A model generated the notes under the pieces. The model was not told where the DNA came from and did no database searches. It was given only the letters and a program-made list of their open reading frames with translations. 64,000 nt of DNA from a virus (lineage: Duplodnaviria; Heunggongvirae; Uroviricota; Caudoviricetes), in IMG/VR virus record IMGVR_UViG_3300006141_000002; one strand, written 5' to 3'. Positions 34,767 to 46,802 of this stretch are shown here, piece after piece. How positions within the stretch are numbered: position 1 is the stretch's first letter; every line of letters begins with the position of its first letter. The position numbers were made by a program, and so were the translations under genes.

Positions 34767-36278
34767 ATGGATTTTATTTACGCCAGACAATCAGTAGACC
34801 GCGAGGACAGTATCTCTATTGAAAGTCAAATTGAACTCTGCAAAAAAGAGGTTTCCTCTCCAGAGTGCATGACATTCTCGGATAAGGGGTACAGTGGGAA
34901 GAACACAGACAGGCCAGACTTCCAGCGTATGATGGAGCGCATTAAGGCTGGCGACACAACCAGAGTGATTGTATATAGGCTCGACCGTATCAGCCGGTCT
35001 GTTCTGGACTTTGCTGAGCTTATCAACGAGTTTCAAAAATATGGTGTCGAGTTTATATCAGTAACGGAGCGGTTTGATACATCGACACCGATAGGTAAAG
35101 CGATGTTGATGATCGTCATGATTTTTGCTCAGCTTGAGCGCGAAACAATACAGCAGCGTGTAATTGACGCATACCGCTCAAGAAGCCGCAAGGGGTTCTA
35201 TATGGGCGGTCGTGTTCCATACGGTTTTCGCTTGAAAGATACAGTGATAGATGGTATCAAAACCAGTATGTATGAGCCGATACCAGAAGAGATTGAAGTG
35301 GTGAAGCTTATTTATTCCCTATACTCAGACCCACAGACATCATTTTCAGATGTAATGCGGTATCTGTACGACCATGGAGTACGAAACCGGGACGGAGAAG
35401 CTTTCAGCAGAACACGAATACGGGATGTGATTGTGAATCCAATCTATCTGAAAGCGGATGACATGATCTATGAGTTTTTCCAGAACCAAGGGGCTGTTAT
35501 CGTGAATGATATATCGCAGTTTATAGGGATGAATGGTGTTTATCTCTATACTGGTGAGGATACCGATAAACGAAAGTCTATATCGCTGGATGGACACATC
35601 GTGGTTCTGGCACCACACATGGGATGTATTGATTCAACGCTATGGCTCCAGTGCAGAAAGAAGTGTCTCAATGTCAGACAAATCGCAAAGCCGGTCAAGG
35701 CCAAAAATACGTGGCTGGCGGGTAAGATAAAATGCAGGAAATGTGGATATGCGCTGTCGCTCAGAGAGTATAAACGGAAATATGCAGATACAGCAAGGTA
35801 TTACGTGTGTGCAAGGAAATACGTCGCTATGACGTGCGATGGTATCGGTGCTGTTCCTGCAGAGAAAATAGAAGATATTGTATTCCTTGAAATGCAGAAG
35901 AAGCTGGCAGAGTTTAATGAACTTCAAATGCACGAAAAGCGCGAGGACAGCTTGGAAGTCACAAAGAAAAAGGTGAGGGTAGATCAGATTGAGAACGAGA
36001 TTAAAATTCTTGTAGAGAGGATTATATCTGCAAATTCTGCAACAATGGAATACATCAATCGGAAGATAGAGGAGCTGGATGCTGAGAAGGTAGTCCTAAA
36101 AAGAGAAATTGCTGAAATGTCAGCAGACATTTACGGCAGGAAAGATGTTGGTGCAGTCAAAGACTATTTGCGCCAATGGAATGAAATAAGTATCAGCGAC
36201 AAGCTAGTGGTTATCGACACGCTGGTTGATACAATCAAAGTGGACGAGGAGCGTGTTGAAATTACATGGAAGATTTAG
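34767..36278 (+). CDS. Large serine recombinase (integrase)
   Basis: YARQS catalytic Ser, DKGYSG, RPDF, YRLDRISR; recombinase domain, CRKCG zinc ribbon, coiled coil. Confidence 0.95.
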   Translation: MDFIYARQSVDREDSISIESQIELCKKEVSSPECMTFSDKGYSGKNTDRPDFQRMMERIKAGDTTRVIVYRLDRISRSVLDFAELINEFQKYGVEFISVTERFDTSTPIGKAMLMIVMIFAQLERETIQQRVIDAYRSRSRKGFYMGGRVPYGFRLKDTVIDGIKTSMYEPIPEEIEVVKLIYSLYSDPQTSFSDVMRYLYDHGVRNRDGEAFSRTRIRDVIVNPIYLKADDMIYEFFQNQGAVIVNDISQFIGMNGVYLYTGEDTDKRKSISLDGHIVVLAPHMGCIDSTLWLQCRKKCLNVRQIAKPVKAKNTWLAGKIKCRKCGYALSLREYKRKYADTARYYVCARKYVAMTCDGIGAVPAEKIEDIVFLEMQKKLAEFNELQMHEKREDSLEVTKKKVRVDQIENEIKILVERIISANSATMEYINRKIEELDAEKVVLKREIAEMSADIYGRKDVGAVKDYLRQWNEISISDKLVVIDTLVDTIKVDEERVEITWKI

Positions 36279-37746: not shown

Positions 37747-39183
37747 TTACACCTTACCCATCATTTGTGCAAAACGGTACAGAACAGTAACAAGCTGCTC
37801 TCTGGTGAGTACATCGGCCCACATACAATTTGGCTCGCCGTTAATGGTTGTCCCGTTACCGGCAATCAGACCAGTAGATACAGCCCATTCACGGGCGTCT
37901 TTGCTCCATGCCCCGCAATCATTGTCCTGGAGTTCCTTGCGCATCTCGCCCCAGAGTTCCTTGAAACGTGCTACGTCCATATCTTCATCCTCCTCTACAT
38001 TGGTATTTGCCCCCGCCAGAAGTGCAGAGACATCGTCACGAACAGTCTGCATACTCTTTCCGTACTTCGGAAGCCAATGCAGAACATCGCCATGATTCGA
38101 GCCGAGCCCAAGCCGGTAGCTGTCTTGGTGGCACAGGATAACGGGAACCTTGACTCCGCTGTATGTAACCGTCCCCTGTGGGTCGAGGTTGTAGAGTTTG
38201 CACAGGTAGGCCGTCAGTTCGACCGCCTCCCGATACACCTTCTCAAAGTAGGCGGGGTCGTTCAGCTTGTCCTCACAGATTTCGAACTGAATCCAGCCGT
38301 TGTTGCAGGAGCCCTTCTTGCCGGAGCCGCAGCCCCACGCCTTTTTGTCCCAATCTCCCACCTGAACACTGGTCACATCTCCGTTGGCGAGCTTACCGAC
38401 CCAGGCATGAACGCCAGCCTGCCGCTCGCTGTGGTTCCAGTCGTTGCGGCTGTTATTCGTACCGAGCAACGCCAGCATCTGCGCTTTGTCTGACGCATTA
38501 TCATCCGGCTGGACATACCTCTTCAAGTTCGGATTATTTGCACCAGTGGAGTGCCACAGTACGCCTCTGACGGTGGTTTTCCCGGCGCCCTTGTACCAGG
38601 TACTTTGCCGCATGAAACACTTCATGGGTGGATTTGCGGAAGCATACTTCATCTTCACGTCATCTCCTCTCTCAGCCGCCACAATGGCGAACTGGTTGTA
38701 ATAGGTCTGCCCGTACTCAGCCCGCTTCTGCTGGACTGCGGGGTCATTCATCTTTGCCGGACGCTCAAACTGGAGCAGCACAGCATCGGATGCCTCTCGC
38801 ACGGATGCCGTGGTCAGAAGCACCCCCAGTACGCCCTTAAAGCTCTCTGAGAGCTCTTTCATGAGGAACCTGAGCTGGGCGTTGAGGTCGCCGATAGACG
38901 CTCCTATGGCCTTGCAGAAGGCATACAAAGCCTGTTTCCGAGTCCAATATGTCCACTGGCACAGGCCGTAGCCAGCGCTGTCTCGGACGAAGTTGGTATA
39001 CGTCCCATTGTCCACGGCGACGGTGTATGTTTCATCTGTATATCCCAACTTCTTCTCATATGTATTCTGGAGATTCTTTGGGTTCAGGCCGCTTTCCGCA
39101 TAGATATTCCCCATCAGCCCTGCTGCGCCAGCGTCGGTCAGCCCTTGCGCTTTCAGAAATTTCCAAATAGTAACTTCGTTCAC
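37747..39183 (-). CDS. Endolysin: phage-tail-lysozyme domain + amidase_2 + SLH-like C-terminus
   Basis: GLMGNIYAESG/GYGLCQWT; HSTG, FEICED, LCH; WAVSTGLIAG...TREQ; GTG start with GGAGGTG RBS. Confidence 0.88.
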   Translation of the reverse strand: MNEVTIWKFLKAQGLTDAGAAGLMGNIYAESGLNPKNLQNTYEKKLGYTDETYTVAVDNGTYTNFVRDSAGYGLCQWTYWTRKQALYAFCKAIGASIGDLNAQLRFLMKELSESFKGVLGVLLTTASVREASDAVLLQFERPAKMNDPAVQQKRAEYGQTYYNQFAIVAAERGDDVKMKYASANPPMKCFMRQSTWYKGAGKTTVRGVLWHSTGANNPNLKRYVQPDDNASDKAQMLALLGTNNSRNDWNHSERQAGVHAWVGKLANGDVTSVQVGDWDKKAWGCGSGKKGSCNNGWIQFEICEDKLNDPAYFEKVYREAVELTAYLCKLYNLDPQGTVTYSGVKVPVILCHQDSYRLGLGSNHGDVLHWLPKYGKSMQTVRDDVSALLAGANTNVEEDEDMDVARFKELWGEMRKELQDNDCGAWSKDAREWAVSTGLIAGNGTTINGEPNCMWADVLTREQLVTVLYRFAQMMGKV

Positions 39184-39267
39184 GAAACCACCTCCTCGGT
39201 AAAACGATGGTTTTATATACAAAGGGAGCCAGCACAGCCGACTCCCGTCCTTTTATCCTTATCTGTC

Positions 39268-39323
39268 GCCGCCTCCTTCAAACCCCTATGGGAGGGGTGC
39301 AGGGGAGGGCCGCAGCCCACCCC
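39268..39323 (+). repeat. Inverted diverged copy of the DGR IMH/double-hairpin element
   Basis: GCCGCCTCC-TTCAAA-CCCCT-N5-AGGGG-TGCA-GGGGAGGGC-CGCA-GCCCACCCC versus 43533-43588 on the minus strand. Confidence 0.7.
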
Positions 39324-39343
39324 GCCTATGGCTAAGCAACATA

Positions 39344-40366
39344 TTACAAGTCTCCAAGACCTGCCTGTTTTTGTGCGACAATTTCGCCGTCCTTGAAGTA
39401 TTTGCCGAACTCTTCATCTGCGTCAATGTCCTTATACACACCGACCATATCCGCAGAGTCCCATCCAATCAAAGACTGGATCACAGAATCCGGGATGTTT
39501 GCTCTCGCCAGTTCACTCGTCATAAAGTGCCGAAGAGAGTGCAGATATACATCCTCACCAATGATACTGGAAAATGTACGGGCGAAGCTGTTCATGCGGG
39601 ATACTGTAATGGGCTGCGTTTTGTCGTGTACGTCCGTAAACAGCCATTCGCTGTCAATGCCGCGCCGCTTGCGCTCTTCCATCCACAGGTCGAGGTATGG
39701 CTTAAAGGGTTTTGCGAGCACATAGCATGTCAGCATCTTTCCGCTCTTGCCGCGTCCTTTGGTTTTGATTTTCTCCGGCGTCTTATACAGAGAACCGTAG
39801 ATGATATTTTCATCAGAGAAATACACGACTTTGAATCGACCCAGCTCAGATTTTCGCCGGCCCGAATACGCCGCCAGTGCAAGGAAACACGCCTGCTCAT
39901 ACTTTTTATGTTCGACCAGATAGTCAAGACAGCCCTGAATTTGCTCTTTAGTCAGAACGGTCTTTTTGCGTACAGGCTCATTGACTGGGTTCTCGATCTT
40001 CCGGACAACCGGCCGATAGTCTGGATATTCATCGTCCAGAATATTTGTGATAAGGTTTGACAGTGAAGAAAGCGCGGCCTTCAGGTGCCGGACACGATTC
40101 GCAGAGCACCCCTGTCCCAGCGCATAATTTTGGAATGCCATGATGTCGCGCTTGGAAATATCAGTGAAGAACTTGTTGTTTGCGTTGTCTACGACCCAGC
40201 AGAAGAAAATCAGCAAATCATTCTTGTAAACCACGATAGTCTGTTCAGACCTGTCCACGGAGCGCAGATACATAATGAAATCATTCATCAGTCTGATATT
40301 TTCCGGGTTGATCTGTGCGATTTTCTCAGGTGGCGCCGTCAAACAGCGGTTCGTTTTCCTGCTCAC
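39344..40366 (-). CDS. Tyrosine recombinase (XerC/D-like), catalytic residues intact
   Basis: YSGRRKSE (R), IKTKG (K), HSLRH (HxxR), GW and VY (Tyr). Confidence 0.92.
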   Translation of the reverse strand: MSRKTNRCLTAPPEKIAQINPENIRLMNDFIMYLRSVDRSEQTIVVYKNDLLIFFCWVVDNANNKFFTDISKRDIMAFQNYALGQGCSANRVRHLKAALSSLSNLITNILDDEYPDYRPVVRKIENPVNEPVRKKTVLTKEQIQGCLDYLVEHKKYEQACFLALAAYSGRRKSELGRFKVVYFSDENIIYGSLYKTPEKIKTKGRGKSGKMLTCYVLAKPFKPYLDLWMEERKRRGIDSEWLFTDVHDKTQPITVSRMNSFARTFSSIIGEDVYLHSLRHFMTSELARANIPDSVIQSLIGWDSADMVGVYKDIDADEEFGKYFKDGEIVAQKQAGLGDL

Positions 40367-40436
40367 TGAAATCCCTCCCTTCGGTTTTTAGATAGAGGGC
40401 AATGTCTCAATAGACACAGCCCTCGTTATATGATGT

Positions 40437-40886
40437 TCAGACAAATCTGTAGTGTGGTCGCTCTCCACCCTCAACACTGTACCTCATCCAGTCGAGCATA
40501 ACGATTGCAAAAGTTGACAGAAGAAACCACACGCAGATAAATTGCGGGCAGATTTGACCGAGAATGTTCCCGGGCATGTGAGAGTAATCCCAGACACCAA
40601 GGCCAAGCCATAAGTTCAGAACACAACCCGCACAGAACTCCGCCGCTGTGATAGCACAGGTACAAATAACAGATTGTAAGAGCAGAGGCATATTCCATGG
40701 AAGTTCTGCTCCGAATCGCTCCAGAGGTACGGCAAGGAAAATAGCAAGCAAAAGCATCGTCCAACTGATTGTTTCCGGTCTCCCGTTTGCTGTCTTCCAG
40801 ATAACCTCAGTGAAGAAGTAGAACGTCCCCGTCCATACCCAAAGGAGTACGCTCAGAACCCACTTTCCGTTCTTATTGACTACCAT
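40437..40886 (-). CDS. Multi-TM protein, DUF1113/CmpB-like
   Basis: EFCAGCVLNLWLGLGVWDYS..P.N..GQIC. Confidence 0.7.
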   Translation of the reverse strand: MVVNKNGKWVLSVLLWVWTGTFYFFTEVIWKTANGRPETISWTMLLLAIFLAVPLERFGAELPWNMPLLLQSVICTCAITAAEFCAGCVLNLWLGLGVWDYSHMPGNILGQICPQFICVWFLLSTFAIVMLDWMRYSVEGGERPHYRFV

Positions 40887-41062
40887 GGCGCATCAGGCTC
40901 CCAATCATCACAGATTTCGTCCAGCTTGCGCCGGGCCCACTCTGCTTCGTCTTCGCAGACAGCAGCATCATATTGACTCAGTGCAAATGCCTGTGCTCGA
41001 ATCACATCCGCCTGCCGCCGGCAGATATCAATCAGAAGATCAATCAGTTGCGGAAGCCGCAT
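40880..41062 (-). CDS. Small hypothetical protein
   Basis: Overlaps both neighbours in the operon. Confidence 0.55.
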   Translation of the reverse strand: MRLPQLIDLLIDICRRQADVIRAQAFALSQYDAAVCEDEAEWARRKLDEICDDWEPDAPW

Positions 41063-41633
41063 TTGCGCTCAACCTCCCAACGATTGCCGCCATCTGCTCC
41101 TGTGCTACGGTCAGCTTACCGGTCAGTTCAGAAGCATAGGGCTCCGGCAGATCCATTCCGTATACCACAGCGGAGATAGTATCCTCATCTTTAAGAGACA
41201 GGACGTATGCTTTCAGCGCGTTGTGGTATGAAGTCTGTGTTGTGATAAGGGTTTGTGCGGCAATGTAGATTTGTGCAATCTCCATAGCGGAGTAGACCGT
41301 ACAGGTTCCATCATCCGCCTGATAGGGGAATGCGGTGCCGCCCAACTCTACCACGCGGAACAGGTTGTTGATATTGCTCTGGTCTTCCAGTGCCAGATTG
41401 AAGTGATCTGTACGGTCGCCGATCTGAACGTCAACACCGGATACAATCACCGTATTGCAGGCTTTGGAGATTTCCAGCAGCTTTGCAGACCGGACAACGC
41501 TGAGAGAATTATCTAAACCGAGGATATCAACGGCGTCCTCTGTGGTGATCCAGCCCATAGTAATAGCCTGGAGCACACCCATATTGGTCAGTCCGCCATC
41601 GTGATAAAGCTGTGAAATATACTGTTTGTCCAT
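41040..41633 (-). CDS. Tail-associated protein (XkdX-like N-terminus plus DUF4376-like domain)
   Basis: GWITTEDAVDILG; HFNLALEDQSNI...YQADDG..YHNALK. Confidence 0.65.
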   Translation of the reverse strand: MDKQYISQLYHDGGLTNMGVLQAITMGWITTEDAVDILGLDNSLSVVRSAKLLEISKACNTVIVSGVDVQIGDRTDHFNLALEDQSNINNLFRVVELGGTAFPYQADDGTCTVYSAMEIAQIYIAAQTLITTQTSYHNALKAYVLSLKDEDTISAVVYGMDLPEPYASELTGKLTVAQEQMAAIVGRLSANAASATD

Positions 41634-41636
41634 ATC

Positions 41637-41921
41637 TTAGCCCTCCAAAATGGATGCGACCAGCACAGCCATATTCGCTTTCATGCGCTTCGTCTTATCA
41701 ACGATGCGGTTGTGATGGTCGATTTCATACCAATCATAGCAGTTGCCTTCCGCATCCTCATCGAATTTTGTCTTCTGGATGACGTGGAAGGTGTCTGTGA
41801 TGGTGCTGTCATCGTATTCCTGTACCACCTCCGCGAACCCCTCAAAATCGGTGTGCTCGCTCCCTTTGGTACGGAGAGTTTCTACGCCGCTGTAGCCATT
41901 TGCTCCAAATACATACTCCAC
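41637..41921 (-). CDS. Hypothetical protein overlapping the RT 3' end
   Basis: GAGAGGAG RBS inside RT; 40-nt overlap. Confidence 0.65.
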   Translation of the reverse strand: MEYVFGANGYSGVETLRTKGSEHTDFEGFAEVVQEYDDSTITDTFHVIQKTKFDEDAEGNCYDWYEIDHHNRIVDKTKRMKANMAVLVASILEG

Positions 41922-42997
41922 GTTAATCTCTCCTCTCGCATATGATTTCGAATCACTTGTTTCAGTTCCTTTTGAACCTTGCCGTGATAGATTTTTTCAT
42001 AGATGTTTTTATTGTTGCAATGTTTGAGCTGACCCAATCTTGAAATCAGCCCAGTCGCCATTCTGGCGGATATTTTTCTGTGCTGCCTTTTGCGGCGGTA
42101 ATACTCGTTCAGCTTCCGTTTTAGACGGAACAGATTGCGCTTCTTGAGCAATGTGAACCTTCTGCCGAACCTGTAGCCGAGTGCGCATGGCATACGGCTC
42201 CTTGTGGGGAACACCTGCCAGTTGTCTTTCAAAGAGAGATTGACTCCCGCAAGCCATTCTTCAATTAGCTTTCTCAGCCTGTGCAGTTTCCTTTTGTTAC
42301 TTCCAAAGATTGTGAAATTGTCCATGTATCTGAGATAGTGGGTGCAGAATCCGCTGTCTCTGATGAGCTGGTCGAGTGGCTGTAGAAGCGTATTTGCGAA
42401 CCACTGCGAGGTGTATAGGCCAATCAGTACGCCGTACCGTAGGACTTCCTCGCATACCTTCAATACGCGCCAATCTTTGATGAGGTGGCGCAACCGTATC
42501 AAAATGAACCCTGGATCAATGCTGTCGTAGAAATGATGGATGTCGAGTTCTTCGCAGTATTTGGTCCCTCTAACATCCGTGTCCATCCACTTCTCAATTT
42601 TCTTCTTTCCGTAGTGAATGCCACGATTGCGGATACTACCACAGCAATGCCTGTCCATTCCACGCATCATGGTTGGTTGGAGAACCTGCACAAGCGCATG
42701 GTGTATATATTGATCCGGCCACAGCTTTGGTTCGTTGATGATACGCCATTTTCCGGCGCTCTTATCATACCGCTGCTTCTGCTTCGGCTTGGAGAGCTGG
42801 CGCTTATGATATACGATCTGCTCGATGATATGGCGCAGATCCTCTACACGCGCCTCCATATCCTGTTCAATCCATGCGACCGTTTTGTTTGGCCTGTGTT
42901 TCGGCAGCCACCTGTGACTCGTGTTTACCTCCACGAGGGCAAGCATCAGGTTGTCGTGTGAAATGAGTTTCTCGTATAGATTTTTTGTACGTTTCAT
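41882..42997 (-). CDS. DGR reverse transcriptase (371 aa)
   Basis: LDIHHFYDSI, GVLIGLYTSQWFAN (DGR SQ signature), LRYMDNF, LGY; AAGGAGG RBS; adjacent TR. Confidence 0.95.
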   Translation of the reverse strand: MKRTKNLYEKLISHDNLMLALVEVNTSHRWLPKHRPNKTVAWIEQDMEARVEDLRHIIEQIVYHKRQLSKPKQKQRYDKSAGKWRIINEPKLWPDQYIHHALVQVLQPTMMRGMDRHCCGSIRNRGIHYGKKKIEKWMDTDVRGTKYCEELDIHHFYDSIDPGFILIRLRHLIKDWRVLKVCEEVLRYGVLIGLYTSQWFANTLLQPLDQLIRDSGFCTHYLRYMDNFTIFGSNKRKLHRLRKLIEEWLAGVNLSLKDNWQVFPTRSRMPCALGYRFGRRFTLLKKRNLFRLKRKLNEYYRRKRQHRKISARMATGLISRLGQLKHCNNKNIYEKIYHGKVQKELKQVIRNHMREERLTWSMYLEQMATAA

Positions 42998-42999
42998 AG

Positions 43000-43237
43000 G
43001 TTGTTACAGTACCTCCTTGTAACCTCATGAGCTTTCCCACGCTCCGGTTTCTCAGAGGGTACTAACCCATGTCCTATCGGTTAATCTTTGCCAAGGGGCA
43101 CGCGATTGCCCGCGCCAAGGGTGTAGTGCGAAATACGCACCACAGCCCTTATAGAAAGGGTGAGGAGCCCGATCTACCAAAAATAATGCTAACCACGCAC
43201 TCGCCCGGAACCTCTGGTGAGGCCCAGCGAAAAACAA
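43000..43237 (-). ncRNA. Probable structured DGR RNA spacer between TR and RT
   Basis: Non-coding, several hairpins (e.g. GTGCG-TATTT-CGCAC); position equivalent to the BPP-1 TR-brt spacer. Confidence 0.55.
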
Positions 43238-43380
43238 GGATGCGGCAGCCGATGTTCGAGTTCGTGTTCGACGCACTGTTGTAGTTCACGTAGAACAACC
43301 CGTGGTTCTGGTTCTGGTTGTAGTTACCCCCACAGTGCAGGCACGGGTTGGAAGCGTTATAGTTCCAGTTATCCGCGACG
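43238..43380 (-). repeat. DGR template repeat (TR), 143 nt
   Basis: AAC-rich; ungapped alignment to 43580-43722 with 20 mismatches, all at TR adenines. Confidence 0.97.
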
Positions 43381-43480
43381 GCACAATAAATGAACCAGCG
43401 ACTGCTGCGTAGGCAATCCCGTAGCGCACATAAAATGCGCTTCTTGTTTGCTTTACTAAAAATAGGAATGATTCGATTTA

Positions 43481-43504
43481 GGGGACGTACTTGCGCACGT
43501 CCCC
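43481..43504 (-). other. GC-rich hairpin with GNRA loop upstream of TR
   Basis: GGGGACGTGC-GCAA-GTACGTCCCC on the minus strand. Confidence 0.7.
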
Positions 43505-43532
43505 TTTTACATTGTTTACTTGGCTACTGGAT

Positions 43533-43588
43533 GGGGAGAACTGCGGTTCTCCCCAAACCCCTCTCTTAGGGGAGTTCTTGGAGGCGGC
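43533..43588 (-). promoter_or_regulatory. DGR IMH and downstream hairpin/cruciform
   Basis: GCCGCCTCC at the VR 3' end (TR has GCCGCATCC), CCCCT-AAGAG-AGGGG and GGGGAGAAC-CGCA-GTTCTCCCC. Confidence 0.8.
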
Positions 43589-45830
43589 AGCCGATGCTCG
43601 AGCCCGTGTACGACGCACCGTTGCAGTACACGCAGAACAACCCGCGGTCCTGGCTCTGGTCGTAGTAACCCCCACAGCGCAGGCACGGGTAGGAAGCGAC
43701 ATAGTACCAGTAATCCGCGACGTATGTGCTCTCAGAACCACTTGCAGCCGTAGGATAGATCGCCCACTCAAGGCCACTTACGGTAGACACCGCAATAGCA
43801 GATGGCCAGCCGTTTGACGGCTTCCCGATTAGAGACCCACCAGAGGAATCACTGAACGCAGACGGGGTATTGATAACGTACATACCATTGCTGTTGTAGT
43901 AGCATCCGTCCATCCAGTCGTACACGTTATCCCACAATCCCTCAATATTGCGGTACTGCGTATAGCCGTATGTAGTACGGTTAGCTGCTGTGGTGCCAGT
44001 GTGGTACTTCATAGCGTCCGTTTTCCCGTTGTTCTCCTTGGAGCCACTTGCGGAACAGCCATATCCGATCTTCGCCTGAGAGTTCCAGTCTGCGAACTCC
44101 ACCAGATAGAGCATTTGGATGGTCACACGCATGGCATAGTCGAACTGCCAAATGGTTGCACCCAAATTATGAATACCTGTACGTGCGGCAGACCGGGTAA
44201 TACTCACCTGTTGGGCAACGCCAGTGGTGCTCTTATAACCGCTTGCGCAATGATATCGCCCGACATAGACTACATCTCGCTCACCCTTTCCGTCTCCTCT
44301 GTTTGCATGAGCGGGGGATACCTTGAAGCCGTCCGTTTCTCCATCTGCGATTTGGAGCTTCAGTGTATTTCCGCTCTTTGTCCACTTGTACCAGAACTTA
44401 GGAATAGCAACAACAACACCGCCAGTACGATTGCTCTTTGTCATCCCGGACCATGGCAGCAAATTATCAAAAGGAGAACTGCCGCTGCCGTTGTTCACGG
44501 CAGGAACGGGATCGGTGAAGCTCGCGGAGGCGTCGGTACGAGACCACTTTGTCGTACTGGAACCATCCCAAGATGCGCCATAAATGGTTACAAACTTAGC
44601 TGTCACACTTACCGACTGGGCGGCTGGGATAGTGTAGTTGCTTCCACCAGAGCAGGTAACCTTGATAGTGGTATTGCCTGTTGCACTATTCACACTGCTG
44701 ACGCGGTAGGTTTTTCCACTCGCCAGTGCGACAGTTGCGATTCCCGTGTTCTGTGACACAACAGAATAAGAACCGTCAAAGTTACCAGAAATAACAAAAG
44801 TGGCACTTGTAGCGGTCTTATTCAGTGTGATTGAGAGTGGGGAAATTGTCATCGTTCCGGTCGCCTTGCCGATTGTCCAGGCTACATTTTTTGCCTTTGG
44901 CTCGGTGTCTCCAGACCAAACGTAGTCATCCTTCGGTGTAAAAGTGGCGGTATATGTTTTAGCATTCGTACCGACAGTTTCTCCTGACAGCACCATCTTC
45001 GTAGAATCATATCCGCTCCAGCTTGGATTTTGTGGGTTTGTATTATAGGTCAGTGATCCGCTTTGAGACGGTACGGTACTAATCACAAGACGGTTCGGAA
45101 CACCGGTCGTGCGGTTGGCTGTGTTGGTATTCACAGCGCCATCTGTGGACGCAGGGAAGAACGAGATGTAGTAGGTCATCCCATTCGTCAATCCTGTGAT
45201 AGTCAGTGGGTTGCTTGCGTACTGATTGCGTGTGTTCACCACCTGACGGAATGCAACATCAGCTCCGCTGTCATCCGGGCTAGTTGCGTATGATCCGGTC
45301 TTCACCACAATGGTCGTATTCGCCCATGTAGCAACAGTGATACCGTCTGTTACGACAGTGGATGCCGGATCAGTCCATTTCACACTGATTTTCCCATTGC
45401 CTGCGGCTGATGCACTAATACCACTTACGTTGCCAAGCGCAACAGGATTGGGCGTGGCGGAGAAGCCACCATCCTCAACGTCTGTGTAGGAATTTGCCGT
45501 GGTATACGGGAAGAGTTTGTAGTAGTAGGTTGTTCCATCAGTCAGCCCACTGTCGCAGAAATACGCCGTTTTATATGCGTCACGCGTTTTGCTGTCCAGT
45601 ACGATAACGCCGTCACGACGGCTCACGGGCATAGAACCGGCTTTCCGCACCAACAGAGTACCTCCCCAGGACGCCAGGGTGGAACCAGCCACCACAAGGT
45701 CCTCCGGATCTGTCCACTGAATATAGACCTTCTCATGCGATGTTACGGTCTTGATGCCGGTCGCGGCAGCCAAAGCCAGACCTCCGCCACCGCTTCCGGA
45801 GCCGCCTGGAAAATTAGAGATAATAGGCAT
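43566..45830 (-). CDS. DGR target: putative receptor-binding/tail adhesin with two FN3-like repeats, Ig-like segments and a C-terminal CLec-fold VR
   Basis: GGGAGG RBS before ATG 45830; duplicated WTDP...GLT.G.TYY modules; YRNIEGLWDNVYDWMDG and terminal GCRL. Confidence 0.88.
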   Translation of the reverse strand: MPIISNFPGGSGSGGGGLALAAATGIKTVTSHEKVYIQWTDPEDLVVAGSTLASWGGTLLVRKAGSMPVSRRDGVIVLDSKTRDAYKTAYFCDSGLTDGTTYYYKLFPYTTANSYTDVEDGGFSATPNPVALGNVSGISASAAGNGKISVKWTDPASTVVTDGITVATWANTTIVVKTGSYATSPDDSGADVAFRQVVNTRNQYASNPLTITGLTNGMTYYISFFPASTDGAVNTNTANRTTGVPNRLVISTVPSQSGSLTYNTNPQNPSWSGYDSTKMVLSGETVGTNAKTYTATFTPKDDYVWSGDTEPKAKNVAWTIGKATGTMTISPLSITLNKTATSATFVISGNFDGSYSVVSQNTGIATVALASGKTYRVSSVNSATGNTTIKVTCSGGSNYTIPAAQSVSVTAKFVTIYGASWDGSSTTKWSRTDASASFTDPVPAVNNGSGSSPFDNLLPWSGMTKSNRTGGVVVAIPKFWYKWTKSGNTLKLQIADGETDGFKVSPAHANRGDGKGERDVVYVGRYHCASGYKSTTGVAQQVSITRSAARTGIHNLGATIWQFDYAMRVTIQMLYLVEFADWNSQAKIGYGCSASGSKENNGKTDAMKYHTGTTAANRTTYGYTQYRNIEGLWDNVYDWMDGCYYNSNGMYVINTPSAFSDSSGGSLIGKPSNGWPSAIAVSTVSGLEWAIYPTAASGSESTYVADYWYYVASYPCLRCGGYYDQSQDRGLFCVYCNGASYTGSSIGCRLQELP
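43580..43722 (-). repeat. DGR variable repeat (VR), 143 nt
   Basis: 3' end of the target gene; differs from TR only at A positions (12 G, 7 T, 1 C). Confidence 0.97.
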
Positions 45831-45889
45831 ATAAAACCTCCCTTGTATCTTCGTGCAGCTGATCGCCAAATGACGCAGCCGTTATGTAA

Positions 45890-46771: not shown

Positions 46772-46802
46772 AAAAGGGGCAGACCCGCAGGCCCACCCCT
46801 CT
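46772..46802 (-). terminator. Intrinsic terminator/hairpin
   Basis: GGGGTGGGCC-TGCG-GGTCTGCCCC followed by TTTT on the minus strand. Confidence 0.65.

Follow-up and report, generated by a model that had tools for sequence, protein, structure and literature searches.

A gene is made a target of a diversity-generating retroelement (DGR) by a signal that consists of an initiation of mutagenic homing sequence (IMH) and a hairpin, and engineers move this signal to aim mutagenesis at new genes. What does such a signal mean when it stands apart from any target? The question is raised by a 64 kb stretch of DNA (64,000 nucleotides (nt), hereafter the window) of a 138,873-base virus record, IMGVR_UViG_3300006141_000002, 47.8% G+C, in which the signal is found twice. 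One copy, A (43588-43533, minus strand), is located at the end of the variable repeat (VR) of a tail-protein gene. The other, B (39268-39323, plus strand), is inverted relative to A. The pair points inward and encloses 4.2 kb (4209 nt) with the template repeat (TR), the reverse transcriptase (RT) gene, four small open reading frames (ORFs) and an intact tyrosine recombinase gene, whose stop codon is 20 nt from the end of B. This layout, including the coordinates, strands and sequences of both 56-nt copies, is as described in an earlier reading of the window (the original prediction), which took B to be a recombinase site, an orphan landing site or decoy, or the relic of a second target, with a dispersed hairpin family as alternative.

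The observation was confirmed, and at the level of sequence its first interpretation appears to be partly supported while an inversion switch does not. B is an unusual layout of a known element and not a new kind of system. Most probably it is an old orphan DGR target end, without VR and inverted relative to A, that is possibly kept for its hairpins.

A and B share one architecture made of the IMH end GCCGCCTCC, a spacer of 6-7 nt, a first hairpin CCCCT-N5-AGGGG, a linker of 3-4 nt and a second hairpin with a 9-bp GC-rich stem and a CGCA loop. Their alignment is identical in 42/57 columns, and an AA/TT versus GG/CC difference in hairpin 2 is compensatory. The identical 9-nt IMH, the two stems, the loop and the compensatory change had been recognised before, and two refinements can be made. 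Hairpin 2 of B contains an internal A.A mismatch, replaced by A.G in other haplotypes, so that it is mismatched in every haplotype. In addition, the IMH deduced from the VR/TR homology is about 17 nt long and not 9 nt; B of the window matches its last 9 nt exactly and 4/8 of the preceding ones. The IMH of VR and B is GCCGCCTCC and that of TR (IMH*) is GCCGCATCC, one base apart, and B carries the base that distinguishes the IMH, a C where TR has an A. In the window GCCGCCTCC was counted 4 times for 0.31 expected.

The VR-side flank of A runs CATCGGCT-GCCGCCTCC, and the spacer that follows the IMH of B is TTCAAA or TCCAAA. The TAA stop codon of the target gene is located in the hairpin 1 loop of A, and TAT is found at that place in B. 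As previously claimed, there is no VR homology upstream of B, since local alignment of the 370 nt upstream with TR and VR was no better than with shuffles. This DNA holds the 5' region of the endolysin gene and the gene itself, on the other strand, and no ORF runs toward B. As DNA, A folds better than shuffles (z = -3.9) whereas B does not (z = -1.2 to -1.3). A third helix closing both hairpins, formed in some folds by the 5' half of the IMH and downstream DNA, was discarded as it is conserved neither in the related contig L203 nor in B. Likewise, a 17-nt inverted match between 39220-39236 and 41852-41868 was set aside, being at chance level and having one arm inside the coding sequence of p94, the 94-amino acid (aa) protein encoded after RT.

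VR ends were then gathered from DGRs whose RT is 45-92% identical to that of the window. Most of them share the module, in which the IMH is followed first by a short hairpin that loops out the stop codon of the target gene and then by a GC-rich one whose loop is mostly CGCA, and also CGAA, GGAA or GTAA (VR ends of L081-L143). Stems vary widely between related loci with pairing kept, which makes compensatory variation plentiful. A covariance model, R1, was built from 20 foreign VR ends, A and B being excluded, and was run on both strands with filters off. Over the 64 kb it found A at 59.5 bits (E 9e-16) and B at 33.2 bits (E 4e-8) and at full model length, with no other match above 8 bits on either strand and the next one at E 0.85. 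Over 85 loci (876 kb), it gave at most one plus-strand match per locus, all in DGR loci, and its only minus-strand matches were the B copies of the clade to which the window belongs; the DGR-less relatives among these loci had none. In the other DGR loci, neither local alignment nor the covariance model found a second copy of the module. Finally, the whole 138,873-base record contains two copies only by pattern scan and hairpin scan. B was thereby shown to belong to a sequence and structure family present at the VR 3' ends of about 60 related DGRs.

Contigs from about 19 samples, reached by exact look-up of the p94, recombinase and endolysin of the window and of two L003 proteins, were compared for the orientation of the segment, and the activity of the DGR was followed in ten assemblies; assemblies give the majority form, and the look-up may merge places that have the same proteins. 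VR was distinct in 10/10 assemblies from different samples (L180-L190), and 34/36 variable columns were at TR adenines. Because VR differs in every assembly and almost only at TR adenines, the DGR is clearly active in natural populations. Upstream of B, 12 sequences showed a few single-nucleotide polymorphisms and one indel, the nearest 32 nt being invariant. No TR-derived or hypervariable sequence was found upstream of B in any assembly, so the TR-derived DNA that relatives might have carried upstream of 39268 according to the original prediction did not appear. B is therefore shown not to be rewritten by the DGR at the level of assemblies, which could still hide a rare complementary DNA (cDNA) insertion. 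Moreover, B is still present in prophage remnants from which VR, TR and the first 63 RT codons have disappeared, and its persistence is thus independent of a working DGR.

The history of B can be followed in related contigs. B is closer to the A copies of the L081/L082 clade (score 61-78; hairpin 2 GGGGAGGGT-CGCA-ACCCTCCCC), and also to those of L085, L087 and L111, than to the A of its own genome (score 50-52). L203, the full contig of the L003 clade, was reached by exact look-up of the L003 197-aa and 149-aa proteins, the same look-up with L003 p94 finding nothing on record. Its A is the same as in the window (hairpin 2 GGGGAGAAC) and its B is of the GGGGAGGGT type. A and B were therefore distinct by the time of the common ancestor, and they have not changed in step afterwards. 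As far as these comparisons go, B is shown to have arisen once, before the window clade parted from that of L003, and to carry an older hairpin 2 allele (GGGGAGGGY), which is still present at the working VR end of the sister clade. Of the interpretations first offered, the relic of a second or former target end fits best with a B that is nearer to the VR end of a sister clade and older than the clade split.

The B of L003 keeps six more IMH bases (CGGCTG, a 3-nt insertion, CCGCCTCC). From 39263 on, right where B lies, the window and L003 are homologous in nucleotide sequence, and on the far side of this point their endolysin modules are different, so that B seems to mark a mosaic boundary between the two. 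Between the window and L003, 4/56 positions of B differ while the surrounding 3.8 kb are 19% divergent, so that B ranks among the most conserved 3% of windows of this length. Of its four differences, two form a compensatory change from C-G to T-A at the loop-closing pair; the other two are in the spacer and at the mismatch position.

The relation of B to the tyrosine recombinase was examined in 76 viral contigs that encode relatives of this enzyme, sorted by gene content and by the DNA that follows the recombinase stop codon. With a recombinase 93% identical, L003/L004 have the DGR, A (as seen from L203) and B. With a recombinase 82-83% identical, L005-L012 have no DGR, no A and no B, and the same is true of L017/L018, in which the recombinase is 65% identical. 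L013-L015 (recombinase 74% identical) have the DGR, with an RT 91% identical, and A but not B. In L005-L012 and L017/L018, the 197-aa gene, the 149-aa gene, the recombinase and the endolysin follow in unchanged order, and the recombinase stop codon abuts the endolysin ribosome-binding site. In L013-L015 the recombinase is directly followed by an endolysin with an extra N-terminal domain. Conversely, the A-type module is found in about 60 DGR loci that lack a recombinase of the window type.

With the recombinase present without A or B, and A present without the recombinase, the enzyme is not tied to the DGR. The conserved linkage of element, recombinase and DGR across phages that had been envisaged thus breaks down in L013-L015, which keep the DGR and the recombinase and lack B. 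Judged from this distribution, B is DGR-derived and the tyrosine recombinase is a resident phage gene independent of A or B, and neither the DGR nor the recombinase needs B. The L003/L004 contigs end 70 nt upstream of the RT start, on the TR side, where the longer L203 continues normally; these ends are probably assembly breaks caused by the TR/VR repeat or by VR heterogeneity.

The most consequential reading of the locus was that A and B are inverted target sites of the tyrosine recombinase, which would flip the 4.2-kb TR-RT-recombinase segment and turn diversification on or off. The geometry fits, since an intact recombinase gene lies within the segment between the inverted copies, and hairpin 2 might be taken for a core site, with inverted arms of 8 bp on either side of an asymmetric 6-bp centre, CCGCAG. 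Nevertheless, recombinases 83% and 65% identical are found at the same place in phages without DGR, A and B, the L013-15 clade has DGR, A and recombinase without B, the A-type module is kept in some 60 DGRs without such a recombinase, and A and B do not co-vary when L203 is compared with the window. After a flip, moreover, the late genes of the 197-aa and 149-aa proteins would face the opposite way from late transcription. The inverted arrangement was found in none of about 19 independent assemblies, every place shown having the canonical order and orientation, and when IMG/VR was scanned with patterns of the two hybrid junctions, one of them matched 12 unrelated sequences by chance and the other matched nothing. 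A single metagenome scan brought up two contigs that carry B, each within its native flanks, and the exact B pattern had no match in GTDB genome contigs. A switch sitting in either state at comparable frequency is excluded; a rare inversion could still occur unseen in assemblies. The proposal that recombinase sites invert or mobilise the cassette is therefore not supported, and we regard it as very improbable. There is even less to be said for the idea that the likeness of A and B is due to chance or to a dispersed family of repetitive extragenic palindromic (REP)-like hairpins, which is rejected and has next to no chance of being right. It had been prompted by a third hairpin at 46776-46799, which shares the tetraloop and a GGGG/CCCC stem. 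On the transcribed (minus) strand, however, this hairpin has 13 bp (three of them G.U pairs) and a UGCG loop and is followed by UUUUAU; it is an ordinary intrinsic terminator that separates two tail genes and has nothing to do with the DGR module. R1 has no match there in spite of its E of 4e-8 for B, relatives without DGR contain no such element, and similar hairpins, suspected to be scattered genome-wide, amount to two copies in 139 kb. As R1, made from foreign VR ends, recovers A and B only, their likeness is real.

Two further explanations leave B with a function. In one, B is kept only as a nucleic acid structure on the late transcript, where it would attenuate or terminate transcription or stabilise the recombinase mRNA at its 3' end, and its origin in a DGR no longer counts. 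This is unlikely, even if B is intergenic in a one-directional late operon, 20 nt past a stop codon, both its stems are kept, one of them through a compensatory change, and a terminator-like hairpin also precedes the recombinase gene in most relatives. The bases that come after hairpin 1 of B on the minus strand are UUUGAA in the window and GUUGAA in L003, neither of which is a proper U tract. A terminator scan did not call B and called the neighbouring hairpin (39246-39224), a proper terminator just downstream that is present in the window and absent from L003. RNA folds of the B region were no better than shuffles (z = -0.5 to -1.3), the 9 unpaired IMH bases vary as little as the stems, and relatives with a recombinase 83% identical do without any gap between recombinase and endolysin. 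In the other explanation, B is a working DGR cis element without VR. It might tune homing at A by docking the RT-cDNA complex or acting as its decoy, or it might be a latent landing pad on which a new target could arise. It keeps all features known for 3' recognition, namely the IMH-specific base, the GC-rich stem and the conserved 4-nt loop in sense orientation, target function was independent of orientation in the DGR of BPP-1 (PMC3240598), and B is conserved above background. Against this, the same DGR (RT 91% identical) runs without B in the L013-15 clade, no TR-derived or hypervariable DNA lies beside B in any assembly, B survives in prophage remnants devoid of VR, TR and the RT N-terminus, and its hairpin 2 is mismatched in every haplotype with a fold no better than shuffles. 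We find this explanation quite unlikely; of the landing site or decoy first suggested, the orphan state is borne out and the use for landing is not. A more specific form, in which selection keeps B as a second place where the RT-cDNA complex can dock, so that homing at the tail-fibre VR is tuned or buffered, or in which its transcript pairs with A over 4.2 kb of late RNA to set off the TR-RT unit, is held to be decidedly unlikely. If it were true, IMH-hairpin modules would have a role beyond marking the VR end.

The preferred reading of B as an old orphan target end has its own weak points. Conservation above the local average and a compensatory change are atypical for a decaying relic, and B may have some function, a terminator role seeming doubtful because there is no proper U tract on the transcribed strand. 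The conservation statistic itself (binomial P ~0.01), which hints at selection, comes from three lineages only and is hence weak. The second target gene or the rearrangement that is proposed left no other trace. Lastly, since assemblies show the majority form, a rare inversion or a rare cDNA insertion at B would be compatible with the data.

How could such an orphan have been formed? B may have been left by a rearrangement or a module exchange at the junction between tail-fibre and lysis genes, which either removed a second, convergently oriented target gene or pushed aside an older target end. It is known that IMH and hairpin provide 3' recognition while 5' integration requires TR/VR homology (PMC3240598; PMC5758913). 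B, which lacks the TR-homologous stretch required for cDNA integration at the 5' side, would not be able to finish homing. The above-average conservation and the compensatory stem change suggest that its hairpins are now tolerated, or that they are of slight use as a structured spacer in the late transcript.

In the window, all genes from about 36.4 to 50 kb are on the minus strand. Transcription passes through tail genes, the VR-ended tail protein (754/767 aa), A, TR, a 240-nt spacer and RT, then through ORFs of 94, 197, 60 and 149 aa, the tyrosine recombinase, B, a terminator-like hairpin and the endolysin. The DGR target gene (43566-45869, minus strand; phrog_5302) has its likely start at 45830, which gives 754 aa as called in related contigs, and the 143-nt VR (43580-43722, minus strand) forms its 3' end. 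Here A acts as the working target 3' module, in agreement with its covariance-model match, its fold and the same architecture at related VR ends. TR (43238-43380, minus strand) ends at its 3' side in the IMH*, and RT (41882-42997, minus strand) matches RVT_1 and phrog_1423 (E 6e-68). The next genes, all on the minus strand, are those of the small acidic protein p94 (41637-41921), which overlaps the 3' end of RT by about 40 nt, of a 197-aa DUF4376 tail-fibre-like protein (41040-41633), of a 60-aa ORF called as a gene in related contigs (40880-41062) and of a 149-aa CmpB-like membrane protein (40437-40886); the 197-aa and 149-aa genes are also present in relatives without DGR.

The tyrosine recombinase (39344-40366, minus strand) has the catalytic R, K, HxLRH, W and Y, as read from its translation. 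A phmmer search of PDB sequences gave no match to it, and its nearest genome matches are in metagenome-assembled genomes (MAGs) of Oscillospiraceae and Acutalibacteraceae, one sample name being mouse gut. A terminator-like hairpin was observed in front of its gene (40367-40436, minus strand, in the window; also in L003, L005, L010 and L017), because of which the recombinase looks like a separately transcribed unit set among late genes. Between its stop codon and the endolysin start codon there is a gap of 160 nt. B, delimited by its sequence parts and its covariance-model match, sits in this gap, and a terminator-like hairpin followed by a T tract (39224-39246, minus strand) separates it from the endolysin gene (Phage_lysozyme2 and Amidase_2; 37747-39183, minus strand), whose GTG start at 39183 is 84 nt from B. 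A megablast search of GenBank phages with an 8.2 kb query gave no match.

A large serine recombinase (Resolvase, Recombinase and Zn_ribbon_recom domains) is encoded at 34767-36278 on the plus strand, and beside this gene, at about 36303, the integrated copies L182 and L184 cease to match the window. With a prophage junction made there by the serine recombinase, the tyrosine recombinase is not the integrase and the phage attachment site (attP) lies at about 36.3 kb; the window represents the excised or circular form of a temperate gut phage. B was also considered as attP and was rejected, since the prophage junctions are found at about 36303, adjacent to the serine recombinase gene.

One and the same prophage remnant, with large deletions, was found in L166, L167, L183 and L184, which are independent assemblies and include an NCBI MAG. 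It extends from the serine recombinase to a truncated nrdD, which is joined to RT without its first 63 codons, and continues with p94 and what follows up to the tyrosine recombinase, and then with B. Three of the assemblies (L166, L183 and L184) go on with 28 codons from the start of the endolysin gene, which are joined to the attachment region. The junctions of the remnant (42807|31122 and 39102|36364 in window coordinates) show microhomology of only 1-4 nt.

The p94 gene is found directly after RT in nearly every locus of the RT family, including loci in which the other flanking phage genes are different. Because of this co-conservation with RT across the family, p94 can be put forward as a candidate DGR accessory gene in a cassette without avd. 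Its AlphaFold model (predicted local distance difference test, pLDDT, 84) has a five-strand sheet and a C-terminal helix. No match was found in Pfam, and Foldseek found no fold match in the PDB at E <= 0.001. An Avd-like protein was considered and rejected, since the predicted five-strand sheet with one helix is not a helical bundle.

B provides a natural control, in which a complete-looking signal stands beside an active DGR with no TR-homologous DNA upstream and the adjacent DNA is unchanged. It agrees with the laboratory rule that 3' recognition alone is insufficient for homing. It also indicates that target ends can be copied, inverted and long kept away from any target, as raw material for the gain or loss of DGR targets. 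Orphan target ends of this kind can mislead automatic DGR annotation or pass for recombinase sites.

Compared with known systems, A is a standard example of the module described for BPP-1 (Guo et al. 2011, PMC3240598) and surveyed in other DGRs (Wu et al. 2018, PMC5758913). As in the BPP-1 module, B has an IMH end with the base that separates IMH from IMH*, followed by a 9-bp GC-rich stem and a 4-nt loop. Unlike it, B is devoid of VR, of TR homology, of an upstream ORF and of adenine mutagenesis, and it is inverted and located 4.2 kb from the target of the cassette. The module of the window RT family is itself set apart from the BPP-1-like one by its two hairpins with the stop codon in the first loop, and the loop of its second hairpin is mostly CGCA where a GRNA consensus was reported for BPP-1-like phage DGRs. 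With the segments inverted by tyrosine recombinases, such as the fim switch, shufflons and Bacteroides invertons, the locus shares inverted repeats that bracket a segment with a recombinase gene inside. In contrast to these systems, recombinase and repeats are not co-inherited here, no orientation polymorphism was seen in assemblies, and the repeats form a DGR-specific family that is found without the recombinase. The enzyme itself is rather comparable to the Xer-like tyrosine recombinases of large Firmicute siphoviruses (Enterococcus VPE25/VFW, Staphylococcus SEP9 and Bacillus Tsamsa, according to GenBank annotations), to which it is 27-33% identical and with which it shares the state of a stand-alone gene in a large phage. 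Unlike these Xer-like kin, it occurs in a phage in which the integrase role is taken by the serine recombinase.

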